Below are positions 2,492-10,127 of a stretch of 10,127 bases of DNA, in pieces. The notes beneath the pieces are model-generated. The model was not told the DNA's origin. It saw only the letters and a list, made by a program, of their open reading frames with translations, and ran no database searches. The stretch is from a virus. Taxonomy: Duplodnaviria; Heunggongvirae; Uroviricota; Caudoviricetes. How positions within the stretch are numbered: the stretch's first letter is position 1; each line of letters starts with the position of its first letter. Both the position numbers and the translations under genes were made by a program. The stretch is taken from the IMG/VR virus record IMGVR_UViG_2778261152_000007, one strand, 5' to 3'.

Positions 2492-2743
2492 TTAGTCCTG
2501 ATTTTTATCCACCCTGAGTAGTTCGCGCAGAGCAAAGGCATCCCCTTTTCTGGCAAGCTTAAACAATGCCGCTCGTAACTCGGCTTCACCTTTCGCTCTG
2601 CCCTTACGGATGGCCGCATAAAAATCTGTCATTGCTTCCCGATTTTCTTTCAGTCGGTTCAGATCAACATCCAGAACGTCAGCGATTTGTTGTGCAGTCA
2701 TCCGGCACGCTGCCAGAGACTCGACTTTCGAATACGGAATCAT
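2492..2743 (-). CDS. Small helix-turn-helix protein (83 aa), possibly packaging-associated DNA-binding protein
   Basis: ATG at 2743 preceded by GGGGGTGA (near-consensus Shine-Dalgarno). TAA stop at 2492 lies 3 nt before the terS ATG (coupled). HTH-like segment MTAQQIADVLDVDLNRLKE. Overlaps the upstream gene's 3' end by 65 nt. Confidence 0.6.
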   Translation of the reverse strand: MIPYSKVESLAACRMTAQQIADVLDVDLNRLKENREAMTDFYAAIRKGRAKGEAELRAALFKLARKGDAFALRELLRVDKNQD

Positions 2744-3611
2744 TTGTCACCCCCATTGATATGCAGGGTGTCTTCTTCCTGTATTTTTCGTGAAGGATTT
2801 TTACTGCAGCGTTGTTCCAGGTGACCTGATGGTGAATGCGTTTATGGCTGGCACCCATCAGTGAGATTTTTACGCACGACGGCGCATACATGACGGAGTA
2901 AAAACTTTTAACGTAGGTTCCGGAATCCAGATACAGCTCGGTCATTCCGCCGCTGTTTTTCTGCGTCTGTTTCTGCCCTAACTGGACAGCACCGATCGTC
3001 ATAAACAATTCACCACAGCGACCGAGATTCGTGTACGTATTCACATCCTCGTTAATGCGCCCCATGAATGAGAACGGTCGATCAACCGAACAGATAAAGC
3101 TGTTCATTGCCTTGCGTTTCACCCACGAAGCATGGCCGCCATTGTCACCAAGAAAATCCCCGCCCTGCGACATAGCGATGGAAAGAGCAGGTATTGATTC
3201 GTAGTACGCCAGCATTTCAGAAAGGATCGCATCCAGTTTCCTTATCGGAAAATAGGCCTGGTCATAGTTGCGATCCACCCGAAACTGGAACTCGTGATAA
3301 TCATCATCGAGCTGAATGAAGTATTTACACCCGACCAGTTTTGCCAGGTCGAAACAGGCATTACGGGCGTAAAAAATTGAGCGGCGGTCACAGAAATTAT
3401 CGGCTTCGTCAAAACGACTGGCGATATCGGCTTTGGAAAACACCAGCACCTGTTCACCAAATTCAGCCATGTACTGATTCCGTGTCTTATCTTCATCATC
3501 AACAACGATAAAAATTTTCCCGGTATAGCCAGCACGACGCAACGTCCGGTAAGTCAGAACTTTGTCCGGTCGCCCGTGAGTCAGAATAAAGGCGCAAAAA
3601 TCATCACGCAT
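2679..3611 (-). CDS. GT-A fold family-2-like glycosyltransferase (soluble, 310 aa from preferred start)
   Basis: Motifs KIFIVVDDEDK and FYARNACFDLAKLVGCKYFIQLDDDY match the GT2 hallmark (hhhhDDxS ... ARNxG ... hhhhDxDD). Preferred ATG at 3611 has GAGGAGGAGGA immediately upstream and overlaps the ParB-like stop by 8 nt. No C-terminal hydrophobic segment. Confidence 0.7.
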   Translation of the reverse strand: MRDDFCAFILTHGRPDKVLTYRTLRRAGYTGKIFIVVDDEDKTRNQYMAEFGEQVLVFSKADIASRFDEADNFCDRRSIFYARNACFDLAKLVGCKYFIQLDDDYHEFQFRVDRNYDQAYFPIRKLDAILSEMLAYYESIPALSIAMSQGGDFLGDNGGHASWVKRKAMNSFICSVDRPFSFMGRINEDVNTYTNLGRCGELFMTIGAVQLGQKQTQKNSGGMTELYLDSGTYVKSFYSVMYAPSCVKISLMGASHKRIHHQVTWNNAAVKILHEKYRKKTPCISMGVTNDSVFESRVSGSVPDDCTTNR

Positions 3612-4395
3612 ATTCCTCCTCCTCACCACCATGCATGATCTCCACCATGCGCTGCGTCATCCGGACAAATCCATTTTCAATAGCCTGCTGATAATCAATG
3701 ATCACCAGCGCCGACTCCTCGAAAAAACACTGAATTTCAGAGGGGGCGTGAGCGTAATAGTCCGCAATTCTGCTGAAATTAAACACCGTGTGACGTTCTG
3801 CCGCACACAGGAGGAATTTCTCAATATCAGGCTCAAGGGACGCCGAACGTATCCGGCTGATCAGCTCCTGAGTTTTCGTATCGTCGTACAGTTCACTGAT
3901 ATCCGGTTTACCGCCCGACGGCTCATAAACAGGCGTATCAATTTTCGTCGTATACGGCTCCTCCTCATTTCCTGTACCGGGCAAAACATCCGTCAACAGT
4001 TCATCAATTTCTGTCGGGATGAAGCCTGTCAGGGAGACATCAAAATCAGCATTGATTAGGTCCGACAGCTCCATCCGCAACAGATCTTCATCCCAGCCAG
4101 CATTCATCGGCAGGCGATTATCTGCCAGGCGGTACGCCTTTTTCTGCTCATCCGTCAGGCCAGACAGAACAATGACCGGAACAGAATCCATTTTGAGCAT
4201 TTCAGCCGCCATAACACGACCGTGACCCGCAATAATTTCGCCCTTTTCGTCAATCAGCACCGGATTAGTCCAGCCGAATTGCTTAATACTTTCTACCAGT
4301 TGTGCCACCTGCTCAGGGCTGTGCGTCCTGGCGTTGTGCGCATACGGTGACAATTCTTGTAATGGGCGATAGACTATCTTTAATTTCTCGCTCAT
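3604..4395 (-). CDS. ParB/sulfiredoxin-like nuclease-domain protein (263 aa) with uncharacterised acidic C-terminal domain
   Basis: N-terminal IVYRPLQELSPYAHNARTH...IIAGHGRVMAA...KKAYRLADNRL is the ParB N-domain signature; the linker FDVSLTGFIPTEIDELL follows. No methyltransferase motifs in the C-terminal ~130 aa. ATG at 4395, TGA at 3604. Confidence 0.85.
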   Translation of the reverse strand: MSEKLKIVYRPLQELSPYAHNARTHSPEQVAQLVESIKQFGWTNPVLIDEKGEIIAGHGRVMAAEMLKMDSVPVIVLSGLTDEQKKAYRLADNRLPMNAGWDEDLLRMELSDLINADFDVSLTGFIPTEIDELLTDVLPGTGNEEEPYTTKIDTPVYEPSGGKPDISELYDDTKTQELISRIRSASLEPDIEKFLLCAAERHTVFNFSRIADYYAHAPSEIQCFFEESALVIIDYQQAIENGFVRMTQRMVEIMHGGEEEEYA

Positions 4396-4410
4396 ACAGC
4401 CTTGCTTTAT

Positions 4411-4446
4411 GAATAAAACGCACCCCAGCAGCCAGTGCTACTGGGG
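4411..4446 (-). terminator. Putative Rho-independent terminator downstream of trkG
   Basis: Hairpin arms 4423..4432 (CCCCAGCAGC) and 4437..4446 (GCTACTGGGG) form a 10-bp GC-rich stem with one mismatch and a 4-nt loop. On the minus-strand RNA it is followed by UGCGUUUUAUUC. It lies about 90 nt after the trkG stop. Confidence 0.5.
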
Positions 4447-4532
4447 ACGGAGGGGTTGCTGGTAAAGTTAGGTATTGGATCAATGAGTGAGTCAACATAA
4501 TATTAAACTCACAATTATAAATCAGCCATATA

Positions 4533-5990
4533 TTAGGAGCGCCAAAAAAAACCTGAAAACAATATAATAACAGGATAAATTTCAAGGCGACCAAGAATCA
4601 TAGCTATGCACATTAAACATTTTGCAATGTCATTAAGCACTCCGAATGACGATGCAGTAGCCCCAAAACCTAATCCCATATTATTAATACATGCAGCCAC
4701 TGTTGCAAATGATGTAAGAAAATCATATCCCATACCATTTAACACCAGTATAAAAAACACCGTGAAGAGAGTATAAAGAAAAAAGAAACTCCATACAGAC
4801 CTCATTACACGATCTGTAACTATCTTCCCTCCTACATTTACACTCAACAACGCTCTGGGATGAGAAAGCTGATTTATCTCGTGTTTGCTTTGTTTGAAAA
4901 GTATAAGAAATCGAAGTGACTTAATTCCACCACAAGTTGAACCTATACATCCCCCAAAGAAACTTGACAACAGCAAAAACACTATCGTGTGCGTGGGCCA
5001 ACTTGCATAATCCTGCGTAGCTAAACCATTATCAGTGAGCATGGAGCTGGCAAGAAAAAACGAATGAATAAAACTTCCATGCAAGTCATACATACCTATA
5101 TGCCAGACCTGGAAAGAGGTAACAATGATCACCCCTAAGGCTATTAACAGAAAGAAACGAAGTTCAATATCTCTGATTAAAGGTTTTATCGTTTTCCTGC
5201 TAATAACAATATACCAAAGAGTGAAGTTGAAAGCCGATAGCAGGGAAAAAGAACCAGCCACCAGCTCAACCAAATAGTTATTAAAATATCCGATACTCTC
5301 GCTATGAGTTGAGAAACCACCAAGCGAAACTGTGGAAATCCCGTGACAAATAGCATCAAACAAAGGCATTCCTGCAAGTCTATAACAGACAATACAAGCA
5401 ATACCTAATAAAGAATAAGTTATCCACAGTGTCCGTGACGTATCGGCCAGGCGGGGAGTGAGTTTGTCATCCTTAAATGGCCCCGGCATTTCTGACTGAT
5501 AAAGCTTTGCACCACCAATACCCAATAATGGCAATACAGCAACCGCCAGAACAATAACTCCTAAACCACCTATAAAATTTAACTGTGACCGATAGTACAA
5601 ATATGCCCGAGGTAATGAACTAACATCATCAATTACAGTTGCTCCTGTTGTTGTTATTCCAGAAACCCCTTCAAACAGAGCATCAATGAACGTTAAATTA
5701 AGTTCTGAGTCAATCCATAAAGGGAATGCACTAATAACAGAAAACAAAATCCAAAACATTACAATTATAATAAACCCATCACGGGTACGTAATTGAATGC
5801 CAGATTTCTTAGTTGTATACCACGCTCCGCCACCAATGCAAAAAAATATAACGAAAGTTATAAAGAAAACGAACAGGCTTTTTTCTTTATAAAACAATGC
5901 TACAACCATTGGTGGCAACATTGAAAGACTATAGAGCCAAACCAGGAACCCACACATATGAGTAACAACTCTTACATGAGATGTATTCAT
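4533..5990 (-). CDS. trkG: TrkG-type potassium uptake protein (TrkH/TrkG family), prophage moron
   Basis: 485-aa multi-pass membrane protein starting MNTSHVRVVTHMCGFLVW, with the conserved GxTTTGATV and GGxGSTxGG selectivity-filter-like motifs. Matches my memory of Rac prophage TrkG of E. coli K-12. The track ORF begins at an upstream TTG (6008); the ATG at 5990 is preferred. The gene is visibly AT-rich compared with its neighbours. Confidence 0.9.
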   Translation of the reverse strand: MNTSHVRVVTHMCGFLVWLYSLSMLPPMVVALFYKEKSLFVFFITFVIFFCIGGGAWYTTKKSGIQLRTRDGFIIIVMFWILFSVISAFPLWIDSELNLTFIDALFEGVSGITTTGATVIDDVSSLPRAYLYYRSQLNFIGGLGVIVLAVAVLPLLGIGGAKLYQSEMPGPFKDDKLTPRLADTSRTLWITYSLLGIACIVCYRLAGMPLFDAICHGISTVSLGGFSTHSESIGYFNNYLVELVAGSFSLLSAFNFTLWYIVISRKTIKPLIRDIELRFFLLIALGVIIVTSFQVWHIGMYDLHGSFIHSFFLASSMLTDNGLATQDYASWPTHTIVFLLLSSFFGGCIGSTCGGIKSLRFLILFKQSKHEINQLSHPRALLSVNVGGKIVTDRVMRSVWSFFFLYTLFTVFFILVLNGMGYDFLTSFATVAACINNMGLGFGATASSFGVLNDIAKCLMCIAMILGRLEIYPVIILFSGFFWRS

Positions 5991-6127
5991 ATCTAAATAT
6001 TCTTTCAATTATAACCACCTTGCTGCAATATTATGATTATACTGTATAAAATTTAACTCCTCTTAGATCTTACTTCACTGTTCCTTATGAAACAATCATC
6101 AAAATGAATCATATTGTAGTTAAGATT

Positions 6128-6592
6128 TTACTTTAAACACTGCTCGGTTATGTATTGCTGAGCACCTTCAAGTTGGGCCTGCATCATTACCAGTCGTTCC
6201 CGGAGGGTGAAATAATCCCGTTCAGCGGTGTCTGCCAGTCGGGGGGAGGCTGCATTATCCACGCCGGAGGCGGTGGTGGCTTCACGCACTGACTGACAGA
6301 CTGCTTTGATGTGCAACCGACGACGACCAGCGGCAACATCATCACGCAGAACATCATTTTCAGCTTTCGCATCAGCTAACTCCTTCGTGTATTTTGCATC
6401 GAGCGCAGCAACATCACGCTGACGCATCTGCATGTCAGTAATTGCCGCGTTCGCCAGCTTCAGTTCTCTGGCATTTTTGTCGCGCTGTTCTTTGTAGGCG
6501 ATGGCGTTATCACGGTAATGATTAACACCCCATGACAGGCAGACGACGATGCAGATAACCAGAGCGGAGATAATCGCGGTTACTCTGTTCAT
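6128..6592 (-). CDS. Rz: Rz i-spanin (lysis)
   Basis: Translation from the ATG at 6592, [21 protein letters not shown]...[14 protein letters not shown], is close to lambda Rz. Start overlaps the endolysin stop (ATGA). The track ORF starts at an upstream GTG. Confidence 0.9.
6187..6372 (-). CDS. Rz1: Rz1 o-spanin lipoprotein, embedded in the +1 frame of Rz
   Basis: [53 protein letters not shown] has the lipobox VVGC and proline-rich region typical of lambda Rz1. Lies wholly inside Rz. Confidence 0.85.
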
Positions 6593-7086
6593 TGCTGACC
6601 CCACAAACAGATTTCACGCTCAATCTCACGACGAGTCATGAGACCTTTCCATTGCTTACCGCCAGCATATGTCCAGCGACGTAGCTGATCACATGCGCCT
6701 TTGATATCGCCCTGGTTTATTTTGCGAAGAAGCGTCGATGTTCTGAAATTGCCAGCACCCACGTTGTAAACGAATGAGTAAAGAGCGCCGCGCGTTGTTT
6801 CCGGTATATCGACTTTGATGTACGGGTTAATTTGTCTGGCGACCGTGGCAAGGTCTTTATTCAGGAGGGCTTTGCATTCTGCTTTGGTATACGTTTTACC
6901 GAGCATGATGTCTTTTCCTGTATGCCCGTGACATACAGTCCATACACCAACAATATCTTTGTATGGTATGTAGCTGACACCTTCCAGACCATCGTTACCA
7001 CTTGGGCCAGTGATTAACACTGATGCTATAGCAATTGCTCCGCCACCAATAGCAGCAGCAACGGCTTTTCGTAATGATGGAGGCAT
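6589..7086 (-). CDS. R: SAR endolysin (phage 21 R21-type lysozyme)
   Basis: 165-aa translation [44 protein letters not shown] has an N-terminal Gly/Ala-rich signal-anchor-release segment and a T4-lysozyme-like core. Near-identical to R21 as I recall it. Its ATG overlaps the holin stop (TAATG). Confidence 0.95.
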
Positions 7087-7301
7087 TATTCACCTCTCGC
7101 AGCCTTGCGCTTATCTTCTTTAATCTTGAAATAAAGGTTTGTCAGGTACGTCAGCAGGCCAAATACCAAGCTACCCAGCACACCTATTGCTGCCCACTGT
7201 GAGGGCGTGACTTTATCGAGCAGCTGTAAAAACCAGTAGCCAGCACTGCCTGCGGAGGTGCCGTAGGCAATGCCCGTTGTTAACTTATCCATGGATTTCA
7301 T
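7086..7301 (-). CDS. S: Pinholin (phage 21 S21-type class II holin) with dual-start motif
   Basis: 71-aa [71 protein letters not shown] is near-identical to S21 from memory. Met1 and Met4 give the antiholin/holin starts. Strong Shine-Dalgarno GGAGGTGAGG upstream. Confidence 0.95.
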
Positions 7302-7488: not shown

Positions 7489-8220
7489 TTACATCATGTC
7501 TTTTTCTAAAAAAAATCTTGATGAATATTGATGGGGAGGAACACCAAAATACCTTCTGAAAACACTTACAAAATATGACGTGTTTTCATAACCGCATATC
7601 TCAGCAACTTTTCCAACAGAATATAAATTGTAGCTTAATAACCTTTCCGCCATCACCATTCGCTCTTCAAGAATTAACTTACTAAATGATAAGCCTTCGT
7701 GCTTTAATTTTCTTTTTAACAGACTTTCACTCAGATACAGTCTTGAAGATATATCACAAAGTCTCCATGCTGCAGATATATCCGTGTGAATAATAGCCTT
7801 AACTTTACTTCCTAAACTATTAAGATATCCAAATAAAAAACTTTGCACTATTTTCTCTGAAGATAAGATAGCAAGACATGCAAGTGATATTTGATTTCTA
7901 ACAAAATCCACAGTTCTGCCATCACAATTCAAGCATGCAATCAAGTTCTTTAACAATGAAAAATCTTCACATTCCACCATCAAGTATGCCGGATAAAACC
8001 TTCTTACAGAAAAAGGTGAGAGTGTGTTGCTTTTAAAGAAATCATTAACTGTTTTTTCTTCAACATCTACGATCATTACATGATCTATATTTGATGAAAA
8101 AAAATCTTTTAAATTGTAATCAATGAGAACAGCACTTCCTTTTTTAAACAAAATATCTTCTTTACCAATTCGGACATCAAACGAGTTCAACACCAAAATG
8201 ATAGAACATATGTATAGCAT
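7489..8220 (-). CDS. AraC/XylS-family transcriptional regulator, AppY/YdeO/GadX-like
   Basis: C-terminal ESLLKRKLKHEGLSFSKLILEERMVMAERLL...VAEICGYENTSYFVSVFRRYFGVPPHQY is the AraC-type double-HTH signature. The N-terminus resembles AppY from memory. Preferred ATG at 8220 has AGGTGG 5 nt upstream; the track ORF starts at a GTG at 8229. The gene is very AT-rich (about 30% G+C in a line counted by hand). Confidence 0.85.
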   Translation of the reverse strand: MLYICSIILVLNSFDVRIGKEDILFKKGSAVLIDYNLKDFFSSNIDHVMIVDVEEKTVNDFFKSNTLSPFSVRRFYPAYLMVECEDFSLLKNLIACLNCDGRTVDFVRNQISLACLAILSSEKIVQSFLFGYLNSLGSKVKAIIHTDISAAWRLCDISSRLYLSESLLKRKLKHEGLSFSKLILEERMVMAERLLSYNLYSVGKVAEICGYENTSYFVSVFRRYFGVPPHQYSSRFFLEKDMM

Positions 8221-8570
8221 ATTATCCACCTGATATCATTGGGGTTACACCAGGTAAGTATAGGTGGAAAATCAATATTCGCCAGTTCAACAATAAGGAA
8301 AATTTCATTGCATACAAGTATAAAATTATGTATTTAACTCACAAAGACAAATTATTAAACCAATCTGTTATATTATATATAGCTGCGTGGAATCATAATA
8401 TTATATATTTTGACTGGCATGTTTACTAACTTTAAGTTGCATCTCAATTGTTTCTTCAGCGTAAACAGAGTTTTTATACAAACTGACACTCTGGGTATCA
8501 TAGTGTAGTTTTTACGATTGTAAATATCCTGCATGCAGGAACTCATCCTTTTGGATGATATCGCATACAA

Positions 8571-9530
8571 TTAATTTACCATCAGTCTTAGAGCCAGTTC
8601 GTCCGGATAGGGATCGAAGTAATTCTGTGTAAGCAAGTAATCATTAGGATACTCACCCAGATAATGCTTCAGCAGAGTCAACGGCGCAAGAAGAGGTAAT
8701 GTGCCAGAACGATAGTTAAGTATAACCTCGCTCAACTCTTTACGCTGGCGTGTACTTAAGTAGTTACTAAAATACCCCTGTATATGCATCAGCACATTCG
8801 TGTGATTTTTACGTGATGCAGGTTTTCTGAGAATCGCCATCAGCTTATCACGATACACCTCAAAGTATGATTCAAGGTCCGCCCACTCGTGTATTGCAGC
8901 CACAAATGGTCCCATATCTTTATAGCCTGCCTGACTATGCGCCAACAACTGAAGCTTATAACGACTATGAAAAGCTAATAACTCTCTTCTTGATAATTTC
9001 TCCTTGTAAAGGTGATTGAGCTCATGCAAAGCAAAAACTCTTTCAACAAAATTCTCACGAAGCACTGGATCATGTAATCGCCCATCCTCTTCAACCGGTA
9101 GCCAGGAAAACTTTTCCATCAAAGTGCTCGTAAATAGTCCCACTCCATCTTTACGACCTCGATTACCATTTTCATCATAGACACGCACGCGCTCCATGCC
9201 ACAGCTGGGAGATTTAGCACAAACCACAAACCCCGATACATCCTTTAATTTGTCCATATAAGAACGACTAAACTCTGTCATTCTCTCTGTCACATCCTCA
9301 TTCTGGTCGTGGCTGAAACACATCCGTATATTTCCTTGCGTCGAGCGCACAAGACGTAGAGCAGGACGCGGAACTGGCAGCCCTATAGCCATTTCCGGAC
9401 ATACTGGTCTGAATGTTACCCATTCCACTAATTTGTCCATTAAAAAGTCAGCTCTTTTGTGACCACCATCAAAACGAACAGCAGAACCGGCCAAACAACC
9501 GCTGATTCCAATCACAGGTTTTTTTATCAT
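8571..9530 (-). CDS. DUF523 (TudS-like, putative [4Fe-4S] thiouracil desulfidase) fused to DUF1722 (YbgA-like) protein
   Basis: 319-aa ORF. ATG at 9530 with AGGGGGAG upstream. N-terminal VIGISGCLAGSAVRFDGG, PVCPE and KSPSCG supply three conserved Cys as in TudS-type proteins. The C-terminal half resembles YbgA/DUF1722. Domain assignment is from memory. Confidence 0.8.
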   Translation of the reverse strand: MIKKPVIGISGCLAGSAVRFDGGHKRADFLMDKLVEWVTFRPVCPEMAIGLPVPRPALRLVRSTQGNIRMCFSHDQNEDVTERMTEFSRSYMDKLKDVSGFVVCAKSPSCGMERVRVYDENGNRGRKDGVGLFTSTLMEKFSWLPVEEDGRLHDPVLRENFVERVFALHELNHLYKEKLSRRELLAFHSRYKLQLLAHSQAGYKDMGPFVAAIHEWADLESYFEVYRDKLMAILRKPASRKNHTNVLMHIQGYFSNYLSTRQRKELSEVILNYRSGTLPLLAPLTLLKHYLGEYPNDYLLTQNYFDPYPDELALRLMVN

Positions 9531-9640
9531 ATTCTCCCCCTTGACTAATTCATTAACACATAAACTGTGTAGTGCACGGAATAAATTGCCTTTCTGGCGT
9601 CATCACTGACAATTTTTCTGTTATGGACTATTCCTAATAT

Positions 9641-9690
9641 AGTATGAAAGTTCTTTAAGTGATCGGTCGTAATCATCTATCTTTCATACT
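9641..9690. promoter_or_regulatory. Perfect 10-bp inverted repeat (AGTATGAAAG ... CTTTCATACT) with a 30-bp spacer in the divergent promoter region; candidate operator
   Basis: 9641..9650 is the exact reverse complement of 9681..9690. The right arm overlaps a CATACTTA element resembling an RpoS-type -10, about 30 nt upstream of the lipocalin ATG. Confidence 0.35.
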
Positions 9691-9722
9691 TACTCTCAAC
9701 TATCAAAAGTACAGGATTTATT

Positions 9723-10055
9723 ATGAAGTTATGGCCTGTGTTGACTGGCATTGCACTCTCTTTCACTCTTATAGCATGTAAGGCCCCGACACCACCTAAA
9801 GGTGTGCAGCCGATTACAAATTTTGACGCCAACCGCTACCTCGGAAAATGGTATGAAATAGCTCGCCTCGAGAACCGGTTCGAACGTGGTCTGGAACAGG
9901 TCAGCGCTACTTATGGAAAACGGAACGACGGAGGGATTCGTGTACTTAACCGTGGATACGATCCAACGAAAAATAAATGGAGCGAGAGCGAAGGTAAAGC
10001 ATACTTTACTGGAGATACTAAAACTGCAGCATTGAAGGTTTCGTTTTTTGGGTAA
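9723..10055 (+). pseudogene. blc: Blc-like outer-membrane lipocalin lipoprotein, truncated after codon 110 by IS1 (stop codon supplied by the IS1 terminus)
   Basis: MKLWPVLTGIALSFTLIACKAPTPPKG...NFDANRYLGKWYEIARLENRFERGL...SEGKAYFTGDTKTAALKVSFFG aligns with the first ~110 residues of E. coli Blc (lipobox LIAC). The frame ends at TAA 10053..10055, inside the IS1 end that starts at 10051. Full-length lipocalins are about 170-180 aa. Confidence 0.85.
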
Positions 10056-10127
10056 TGACTCCAACTTATTGATAGTGTTTTATGTTCAGATAATGCCCGA
10101 TGACTTTGTCATGCAGCTCCACCGATT
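10051..10127 (-). mobile_element. IS1: IS1 insertion sequence, second copy, IRR terminus (continues beyond window end)
   Basis: 10051..10127 reads GGTAATGACTCCAACTTATTGATAGTGTTTTATGTTCAGATAATGCCCGATGACTTTGTCATGCAGCTCCACCGATT, the reverse complement of the IS1 right end. It has the same orientation as the copy at 1..402. Confidence 0.95.

Follow-up and report, generated by a model that had tools for sequence, protein, structure and literature searches.

Phage DNA glycosylation is currently understood as the transfer of a sugar to a pre-installed hydroxyl group, provided by 5-hydroxymethylcytosine (hmC), 5-hydroxymethyluracil (hmU) or 5-hydroxycytosine. The TET-associated glycosyltransferase (TAGT) family includes the T2/T6 enzyme, which adds glucose to glucosyl-hmC in DNA, together with TET-associated DNA glycosyltransferases (GTs), and the characterised TAGTs have hmC, hmU or glucosyl-hmC as acceptors (PMC13216743, PMC8256090). 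A solitary TAGT with no known precursor pathway is found in 288 of 753 phage genomes (PMC13216743) and in about 65% of GT contigs (bioRxiv 2023.12.21.572611), and GT contigs without a 5mYOX or ThyS gene have been set aside in the literature as "less likely" DNA modifiers. Here we describe a TAGT gene that is coupled to a gene for a ParB-like protein in the IMG/VR virus record IMGVR_UViG_2778261152_000007. The whole 10,127 nucleotides (nt) of this record are referred to as the window, and the relevant genes all lie on its minus strand.

ParB-like proteins have been linked to DNA modification in several systems. A subclass of phage thymine dioxygenases requires a ParB-like activator on double-stranded DNA (dsDNA), which consists of an N-domain and a C-domain and has no DNA-binding domain; the activation of phage DNA-modifying enzymes by such proteins is established while its mechanism is open (PMC13229309). 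DpdA requires the ParB-like ATPase DpdB for DNA modification (PMC10164549), and a 2025 survey reported that ParB-fold-methyltransferase fusions are enriched in prophages and bind ATP, CTP or GTP (PMC12704722). Iyer et al. (2013), as cited in PMC8256090, put forward a role for ParB in directing the modification machinery while DNA is packaged. Phage glycosyltransferases or terminases with ParB genes nearby otherwise receive passing mentions in the literature.

In the window, the ParB-like gene (3604-4395) encodes a protein of 263 amino acids (aa) with an isoelectric point (pI) of 4.5, which is the full-length form of K-12 YnaK, and the gene following it (2679-3611) encodes a soluble GT-A glycosyltransferase of 310 aa. 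They share the 8 nt ATGCGTGA (3604-3611), within which the ParB-like stop codon (3606-3604) overlaps the transferase ATG (3611-3609). Read on the minus strand, the junction is GAGGAGGAGGAAT-ATG-CG-TGA, i.e., three GAG codons followed by GAA, TAT, GCG and TGA in the ParB-like frame. The Shine-Dalgarno run of the transferase, GAGGAGGAGGAA (3613-3624), lies within the ParB-like coding sequence, where it encodes an EEEE tail, and GGAGG motifs are located 3 and 6 nt 5' of the ATG. The open reading frames (ORFs) and the junction therefore confirm what a sequence-only reading of the window had claimed, that the two genes overlap upstream of the packaging genes and that a strong ribosome-binding site for the second is placed inside the first. 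An alternative in-frame ATG at 3630-3632, 21 nt upstream, would add MVVRRRN and give a protein of 317 aa; PGAP and the homologues favour the 310-aa start.

The second protein belongs to the TAGT family. It matches PF20691 with 121.1 bits (cut-off 27.5, E 7.6e-35) over positions 4-205 of the 205-position profile, and phrog_842, "beta-glucosyl-HMC-alpha-glucosyltransferase", with an E-value of 1e-103; UniRef and recent PGAP annotation name it "GREB1-related protein". The sequence-only reading had called it a GT2 enzyme from the motifs FIVVDDED, ARNAC and FIQLDDDY. These motifs are present and fall on invariant family columns, but the family label has to be changed from Glycos_transf_2 (PF00535) to TAGT. 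Among close homologues D38, D39, D41, D102-D104 (the DXD motif), N187-E188-D189 and H260-H261 are invariant, and D102, D103, D189, H260 and H261 are still invariant with the 21%-identical homologue from a T4-like Aeromonas phage in the alignment. Judged by the invariance of these catalytic residues, the transferase looks like an active enzyme. An AlphaFold model built on a shallow alignment is confident for residues 1-150 (mostly pLDDT >85), and its top Foldseek matches among solved structures are the GT-A proteins SpsA, WrtF and glycogenin; profile (PF20691) and structure searches thus both bear out a GT-A fold.

The transferase has a pI of 8.0 and no transmembrane (TM) or hydrophobic segment, with a maximum Kyte-Doolittle mean over 19 residues of 1.08, so it lacks the C-terminal membrane anchor of GtrB, as predicted from the letters. 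The GtrB enzymes of temperate phages are likewise prophage-encoded GT-A proteins with a DXD motif, but they have the anchor, GtrA/GtrC partners and a Glycos_transf_2 domain, none of which is found in the cassette transferase. A GtrB-type seroconversion GT2 was rejected on these grounds, i.e., no TM segment, no PF00535 match and no GtrA/GtrC neighbours. The PADLOC defence library gave no match to the transferase.

Three parts can be distinguished in the ParB-like protein: a ParB N-domain (about residues 1-100), a very acidic linker (about 101-140) and a C-terminal domain (CTD, about 144-254). Residues 23-90 match ParB_N (PF02195, E 1.2e-6), the full-length protein matches phrog_620 (E 8.5e-91), and PGAP labels it ynaK / "ParB/Srx family N-terminal domain-containing protein". 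The N-domain aligns to structures of Noc and Spo0J, with an invariant GHGR in place of the GERR box. Together, N-domain and linker (residues 1-140, 3976-4395) form a module of the type found in DNA methyltransferases, in agreement with the sequence-only reading. Residues 10-144 match positions 13-151 of 436 in the PADLOC model MTase_II (PDLC03229, E 2.2e-38), and the module matches positions 31-171 of 633 in phrog_498, a ParB-methyltransferase fusion (E 1.2e-50). By tblastn it matches 407 phage records, many of them annotated as adenine methyltransferases, and those so annotated are 45-55% identical to it. The ParB_N-DNA methyltransferase fusions (phrog_498, PDLC03229; PMC12704722) are homologous over the first ~140 aa, with up to 55% identity, and share the slot upstream of terminase, but the cassette has the CTD where these have a methyltransferase domain, and catalysis would be provided in trans by the coupled gene. 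In phage MW202613, a ParB_N-adenine methyltransferase fusion occupies this slot, before genes for a protein like the terminase small subunit (TerS), terminase and portal.

A canonical partition ParB was rejected as an identity for this protein, as it has no helix-turn-helix (HTH), scores 38.5 against TIGR00180 (cut-off 58.45) and aligns to Noc and Spo0J with its N-domain only. The inspected loci (the Rac prophage of Escherichia coli SE11, HHTV-2, phi jlb1, c5 and two Pfam-annotated contigs) have no annotated ParA in the vicinity of the pair.

The CTD is encoded at 3607-3975 (residues 141-263, pI 4.4). As expected from the sequence-only reading this region is acidic and free of methyltransferase motifs, and it has no match among Pfam, NCBIfam, PADLOC, PDB profiles or methyltransferase models. 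A profile search of solved structures likewise returned no matches for the transferase and the CTD; only the ParB N-domain found relatives. In an exhaustive HMMER search, 1189 clusters at 50% identity contained the CTD, without exception at the C-terminus. Its near-invariant residues are Y148, K151, Y157, E158, D171, K174, R201, H202, Y214, H216, Q222, E226, S228, D234 and E240. HMMER output against solved structures contains a weak CTD look-alike of ParB (LPxxV..ERH). The CTD is not supported as a degenerate ParB DNA-binding or dimerisation domain, since hhalign of a 150-sequence CTD profile against Spo0J/ParB gave 5% probability. In one CTD representative (P0293, 346 aa) the N-terminus is weakly Toprim-like (MKTIVLAEKPSVGRELA...; Pfam Toprim E 0.0024, below the cut-off) and is followed by ParB_N and the CTD. 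The sole candidate for a Rosetta-stone fusion of CTD and transferase, the 161-aa fragment P0241, looks like an assembly or frameshift artefact and was rejected.

The two genes are conserved as a unit, a point that the sequence-only reading had put forward for checking. A scan with the transferase alignment covered 20 loci from species-representative genomes and 80 viral-contig loci, and at least 588 viral relatives were confirmed. Every locus has a ParB-like homologue upstream on the same strand, and a hidden Markov model (HMM) of the CTD matches the gene directly upstream of the TAGT-subfamily gene in 101 of 101 loci. With transferases clustered at 90% identity, the end of the partner gene falls within a range from 11 nt inside the transferase gene to 4 nt ahead of its start in 33 of the 35 clusters. 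Overlaps of 8 or 11 nt prevail among the clusters and are also present in HHTV-2, phi jlb1, c5 and a Porphyromonas phage. The two exceptions are a 44-nt gap and a locus with an inserted paralogue in which a TAGT is fused to an S-adenosylmethionine (SAM) methyltransferase (L020). Such an arrangement is far beyond chance. The carriers among species genomes are Enterobacteriaceae, Hyphomonadaceae, Thiotrichales, Prosthecochloris, Bacteroides/Dysgonomonas, Lachnospiraceae/Faecousia and Saccharibacteria. Cultured carriers include Nocardia phage NTR1, 191-kb Vibrio phages, Lactobacillus gasseri phi jlb1, Porphyromonas phages, the Lactobacillus delbrueckii phages c5, LL-Ku and phiLdb, and the haloarchaeal virus HHTV-2. 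Across these hosts, which span Proteobacteria, Bacteroidota, Firmicutes, Chlorobi, Saccharibacteria, Actinobacteria and a haloarchaeal virus, the transferase is 42-60% and the CTD about 50% identical.

The exceptional L020 locus (2614-6161) is a prophage in a Hyphomonadaceae metagenome-assembled genome. Its ParB-CTD gene is followed by the fusion of a TAGT to a class-I SAM methyltransferase (564 aa) and then by a second TAGT; the inserted TAGT paralogue is 49% identical and overlaps the CTD gene. This tandem suggests a multi-step modification, perhaps yielding a disaccharide or a methylated sugar.

The CTD is the invariant partner of the transferase and the ParB module a frequent, optional addition, because stand-alone CTDs also pair with the transferase. 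Such CTDs lie beside the transferase gene in loci L016 and L101 (134 aa each) and in Vibrio phage pv27 (139 aa), where the protein is 54% identical to the E. coli CTD. A 133-aa CTD ORF in locus L018 starts 19 nt from the contig end and may be truncated. This short stand-alone type makes up about two dozen of the 150 top CTD clusters.

Most carriers have the pair at the packaging genes. In the window it is located directly upstream of a small HTH ORF, TerS and the terminase large subunit (TerL). The order partner, transferase, TerS, TerL, portal is found in SE11 Rac, phi jlb1, c5, Bacteroides prophages, a Porphyromonas phage and HK97-like contigs, and in c5 the pair constitutes ORF1 and ORF2 immediately after cos. 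A survey of neighbours included 109 proteins from 18 non-enterobacterial loci and considered the 25 most frequent of 49 families. Large terminases dominate these neighbours and belong to at least four unrelated Pfam types (Terminase_6N, Terminase_3, TerL_ATPase and GpA). N6/N4 methyltransferases are present in 3 of the 18 neighbourhoods and a QueD-like gene in one. Away from terminases, the pair lies between DNA polymerase A and a beta-clamp homologue in a Lachnospiraceae phage, and among SSB, exonuclease, primase and helicase genes in 191-kb Vibrio phages such as pv27. In phi jlb1 the 1.4 kb upstream of the ParB-like gene (L105, 11351-12745) is free of ORFs longer than 73 aa and could be a late promoter or packaging-site region. 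In one HK97-like cassette carrier the major capsid gene is directly followed by a run of four small Glycos_transf_2 genes (L112, 17837-20316; L113, 8659-11138), which may serve virion glycosylation or further sugar tailoring.

The layout of the window points to late expression of the pair. The potassium transporter moron trkG (4533-6008) precedes the ParB-like gene, and between them lies a terminator-like hairpin (4423-4446) with a 10-bp stem, 7 G-C pairs and a T-rich tail, which would shield the cassette from trkG transcription barring antitermination. From the hairpin to the ParB-like start codon we found no promoter-like site. Further upstream on the same strand are the lysis genes, i.e., genes for a holin (7086-7301), a lysozyme (6589-7086) and an Rz-like protein (6128-6604). 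Strain MB46, with a locus that shares 98% identity with the window, has a Q antiterminator gene on this strand upstream of the pair. From the hairpin, the lack of a local promoter and the position of Q, we infer that the pair belongs to a Q-dependent late transcript and is not a lysogenic-conversion gene.

Our preferred explanation, which we consider about evenly balanced between right and wrong, is that the two genes form a late-expressed module that glycosylates DNA at a non-classical acceptor with the assistance of the ParB part. The pair would then be a phage cassette for post-replicative DNA glycosylation, expressed at the head of the late (packaging) operon. As the catalyst, the transferase would be a metal-dependent GT-A enzyme using a nucleotide-sugar donor, and the CTD would bind or activate it as an obligatory partner, probably in a physical complex whose two components the stop/start overlap would supply in stoichiometric amounts. 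The ParB N-domain and linker would act as loader or activator and bring or hold the enzyme on dsDNA, possibly in a manner dependent on nucleoside triphosphates (NTPs), so that DNA could be modified before packaging and might be protected from restriction. The acceptor would be some DNA group other than the classical hmC or hmU, because no enzyme making those bases was found in the carriers searched.

A DNA substrate is favoured because the ParB module is interchangeable with that of DNA methyltransferases in the same genomic slot, and because three of the four characterised branches of the superfamily (T2/T6 TAGT, TET-associated GTs and JGT) act on DNA. It is also favoured because ParB-fold helpers of DNA-modifying enzymes have precedent, and because the contexts away from terminases are DNA-centred, with replication genes in the phages above and the SAM methyltransferase fusion in L020. 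Furthermore, the pair is well conserved over its hosts while the adjacent terminases are unrelated in type, which argues for a universal substrate such as DNA over a phage-specific protein.

A close precedent for this organisation is 5mYOX176/ParB176 (O'Toole et al., PNAS 2026, PMC13229309), in which a DNA-modifying-type enzyme is likewise encoded beside a ParB-like protein that combines an N-terminal domain of NTP-binding type with a C-domain and has no DNA-binding domain, and both systems are frequently neighbours of terminases. Both activator domains are required there and the activator matters on dsDNA. However, the 5mYOX176 enzyme is an Fe(II)/2-oxoglutarate dioxygenase and the cassette enzyme a glycosyltransferase, and the cassette CTD can stand alone with its enzyme. 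The DpdA/DpdB system resembles our proposal in that a DNA-modifying enzyme relies on a separate ParB-fold NTPase, and no stable complex is required in that case (PMC10164549). In contrast to the cassette, DpdB is a DGQQR/DUF262-type ParB relative with another C-domain, and Dpd chemistry is a base exchange encoded in a bacterial restriction-modification island. JGT of kinetoplastid base J and human GREB1 belong to the same superfamily as the transferase and neither has a ParB-like partner; JGT acts on DNA and requires JBP-made hmU, whereas GREB1 acts on protein (PMC7968844).

Several observations weigh against DNA glycosylation. SE11 Rac, c5 (31.8 kb) and phi jlb1 (38 kb) contain no TET/JBP, thymidylate-synthase-type hydroxymethylase or C5-methyltransferase. 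The same precursor enzymes were not found among the neighbours at the 18 loci, where the 25 most frequent of 49 families were considered and rare singletons are possible, and two Pfam-annotated contigs contain no TET_JBP or other source of hydroxymethyl-pyrimidine. Among the unannotated ORFs tested in c5 and phi jlb1, the largest of c5 being 208 aa, none matched an oxygenase or thymidylate-synthase model. To our knowledge, every characterised DNA glycosyltransferase requires a hydroxyl handle, which may be hmC, hmU, 5-hydroxycytosine or a sugar; with no hydroxyl source found in these carriers, the proposed chemistry is therefore without precedent. The ParB-like protein is strongly acidic and has no recognisable DNA-binding HTH, given the TIGR00180 score below cut-off and the hhalign probability of 5%. 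The AlphaFold models are poor for the C-terminal half of the transferase and for the CTD (pLDDT <50, shallow alignments), and the copy in the window sits in a prophage with an IS1-cut TerL. Finally, GREB1 of the same superfamily O-glycosylates a protein (PMC7968844).

The comparison with T2/T6-type systems bears directly on the acceptor. The transferase is similar to the T2/T6 beta-glucosyl-HMC-alpha-glucosyltransferase and the TET-associated GTs in Pfam family, GT-A fold, phage origin and solubility, and it shares the DXD, NED-type and C-terminal HH motifs with the T4-like homologue of Aeromonas phage 65. Identity to this homologue is about 21-23%, with the T2/T6 proteins themselves left out of the comparison. 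The systems differ in that the cassette carriers SE11 Rac, c5 and phi jlb1 encode no alpha- or beta-GT, no TET/JBP and no hydroxymethylase, and in that a CTD gene always precedes the cassette subfamily but is missing for the T4-like homologue. Because of the low identity, the missing precursor enzymes and the subfamily-specific CTD partner, the cassette acceptor probably differs from that of T2/T6-type TAGTs. The Aeromonas phage 65 homologue (L111, 2168-3364) has an N-terminal extension of ~100 aa that is absent from the ParB-associated subfamily, and no CTD match was found within it.

If DNA is the substrate, we tentatively suggest, as a possibility that is on balance doubtful, that the sugar is put on DNA lacking a hydroxymethyl handle, at an exocyclic amine, a backbone phosphate or a DNA terminus, which would be a chemically new modification. 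With the same reserve, the cassette would be a two-protein machine of a TAGT-subfamily enzyme and a CTD adaptor, usually fused to the ParB loader, with a widespread occurrence among temperate and virulent phages of bacteria and archaea.

The alternative that survives best, which we nevertheless regard as unlikely, is that the pair is a protein O-glycosylation system. The transferase would modify its own partner at a CTD tyrosine, in a glycogenin-like manner, or some other protein, and the ParB part would only localise the product. GREB1 O-GlcNAcylates ER-alpha (PMC7968844), the glycogenin-like fold of the transferase fits such a role, and the CTD is the sole protein that always accompanies the transferase. 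The CTD opens with a probably extended, proline-rich segment of low pLDDT, Y-x-x-K-x-x-x-P-x-Y-E-P, whose two tyrosines are ~99% conserved and which could be an acceptor or a docking peptide. That no source of a hydroxylated DNA base was found in SE11 Rac, c5 and phi jlb1 also fits a protein acceptor, and the GT2 genes in the head module of one contig hint at virion glycosylation there. However, a self-contained enzyme-substrate pair leaves the methyltransferase-type ParB module and the replication-gene positions unexplained, and no conserved external protein target is evident, as terminase and capsid types vary widely among carriers. DNA is also the substrate in most of the characterised family branches (T2/T6 TAGT, TET-associated GTs, JGT). 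The sequence-only reading had proposed glycosylation of either DNA or a virion or packaging protein, and membership in a DNA-GT family and the ParB module favour the former; DNA is still to be regarded as a candidate acceptor, and GREB1 keeps the protein alternative open.

It is quite improbable that the transferase is a classical TAGT acting on hydroxymethyl-pyrimidine or glucosylated DNA, with the precursor made by an unrecognised phage dioxygenase, by the host or by a co-infecting T-even-like phage. The Pfam family is defined by hydroxymethyl-pyrimidine chemistry, thousands of 5mYOX-like sequences are missed by the Pfam TET_JBP model, and a preprint remarks that prophage GTs might modify invading genomes; the methyltransferases in 3 of 18 neighbourhoods and the single QueD-like gene could be counted on the same side. 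Against this stand the lack of oxygenase and thymidylate-synthase matches among the tested ORFs of c5 and phi jlb1, and the position behind a terminator in a late operon, unlike a placement for lysogenic conversion or defence. The same cassette is also found in virulent phages and a haloarchaeal virus, and the low identity is to a T4-like homologue that itself has no CTD partner.

We regard as very improbable a packaging accessory, i.e., a ParB-like nuclease or pac/cos-site factor beside an unrelated transferase for the envelope, seroconversion or a small molecule: the pair adjoins terminase genes in most carriers and "ParB-like nuclease" is a common annotation of such proteins, but the ParB part is dispensable where stand-alone CTDs pair with the transferase, the pair also occurs in replication modules away from terminases, the transferase has no membrane anchor, GtrA/GtrC neighbours or Glycos_transf_2 match, and the strict coupling argues for a single joint function.

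The protein families of the cassette are already known and annotated. In the searchable literature we found no description of the strict translational coupling of a TAGT subfamily to a dedicated, unannotated domain, although Iyer et al. (2013), who defined TAGT, may mention a ParB link. Neither the usual fusion of this domain to a methyltransferase-type ParB module nor the presence of the cassette in genomes without a precursor pathway was found described there. The sequence-only reading knew of no characterised function for the pair, a statement that is now dated in part, as experiments published in 2026 demonstrated ParB-like activators of phage DNA-modifying enzymes (PMC13229309) and the lack of an explanation for solitary TAGTs has been pointed out (PMC13216743). 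The cassette joins these two loose ends, since no member of this TAGT subfamily is truly "solitary": a dedicated and previously unannotated partner domain, in most cases fused to the ParB module, accompanies every one of them. If the substrate is DNA, the modification chemistry would be new, with a bearing on evasion of restriction and Type IV enzymes, sequencing artefacts and host range in phage therapy; if it is the partner protein, the pair would represent a new system of protein glycosylation in phages. In both cases functional context is gained for a conserved domain of more than 1000 sequence clusters.

Both genes of the pair are intact in the window, while the prophage around them is not. 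TerS is encoded at 1394-2488, and of TerL the N-terminal 348 aa remain (376-1422); between them the two genes give matches to Terminase_2 / Terminase_6N and phrog_51 / phrog_2. TerL is broken by IS1, whose insA lies at 72-347, after ~344 of 436 codons, with the final codons (GDAANLLI) contributed by the IS1 end or inverted repeat. The prophage in the window is therefore packaging-defective, and the cassette copy is thus probably an unexpressed relic. In MB46, where the prophage remnant adjoins bioA-ybhB, the annotation likewise has a TerL truncation beside an IS1 transposase, and the pair itself has decayed: the transferase is frameshifted and the ParB-like gene truncated.

Between the transferase and TerS, the small HTH-like ORF (2492-2743; 83 aa, or 69 aa according to PGAP) resembles a terminase small subunit (phrog_309, E 8e-23) and is kept downstream of the pair in enterobacterial loci. 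The last ~20 aa of the transferase (residues 291-310) are specific to the E. coli lineage and without counterpart in homologues of ~288 aa. This tail enters the 83-aa ORF by 65 nt (2679-2743), or by 23 nt with the 69-aa PGAP start, and looks like read-through following loss of an ancestral stop.

Of 5426 complete E. coli genomes, 1580 have a match to the 1717-nt pair region, and in 889, about one in six, at least 80% of it is covered; the full arrangement of the window is present in only 29 complete genomes. K-12 retains a remnant. After trkG the K-12 sequence tracks the window from 4532 to 4142 and continues directly in the ydaY region, whose place in SE11 is between the genes for the tail tube and the tape measure. 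Compared with SE11, K-12 Rac has a deletion of ~11.6 kb, with its left end at window position 4142 in the ParB-like gene and its right end at L001 9903, upstream of ydaY (the deletion region in K-12 MG1655 is L109 6378-6981). The packaging, head and tail-tube genes and the transferase are gone from K-12 Rac. This deletion explains why only the first ~85 ParB-like codons survive as ynaK and why ynaK lies next to ydaY. The sequence-only reading had suggested that ynaK and ydaY may be decayed forms of the pair; this is correct for ynaK, but ydaY was rejected as a remnant of either gene, as it is an unrelated tail-region gene joined by the deletion.

Two further observations concern other prophage genes. 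Between the Q region and the lysis genes of the window (7489-10127) are genes for an AraC/HTH-type regulator (7489-8229) and a YbgA-family protein (8571-9530) and a lipocalin gene fragment (9723-10055), which appear to be cargo in the late region. The early region of SE11 Rac (L001, 32193-33875) encodes a 560-aa DUF262-domain protein in the same intact prophage as the cassette, and DUF262 is the N-terminal domain of the GmrSD family, Type IV enzymes directed against glycosylated DNA.

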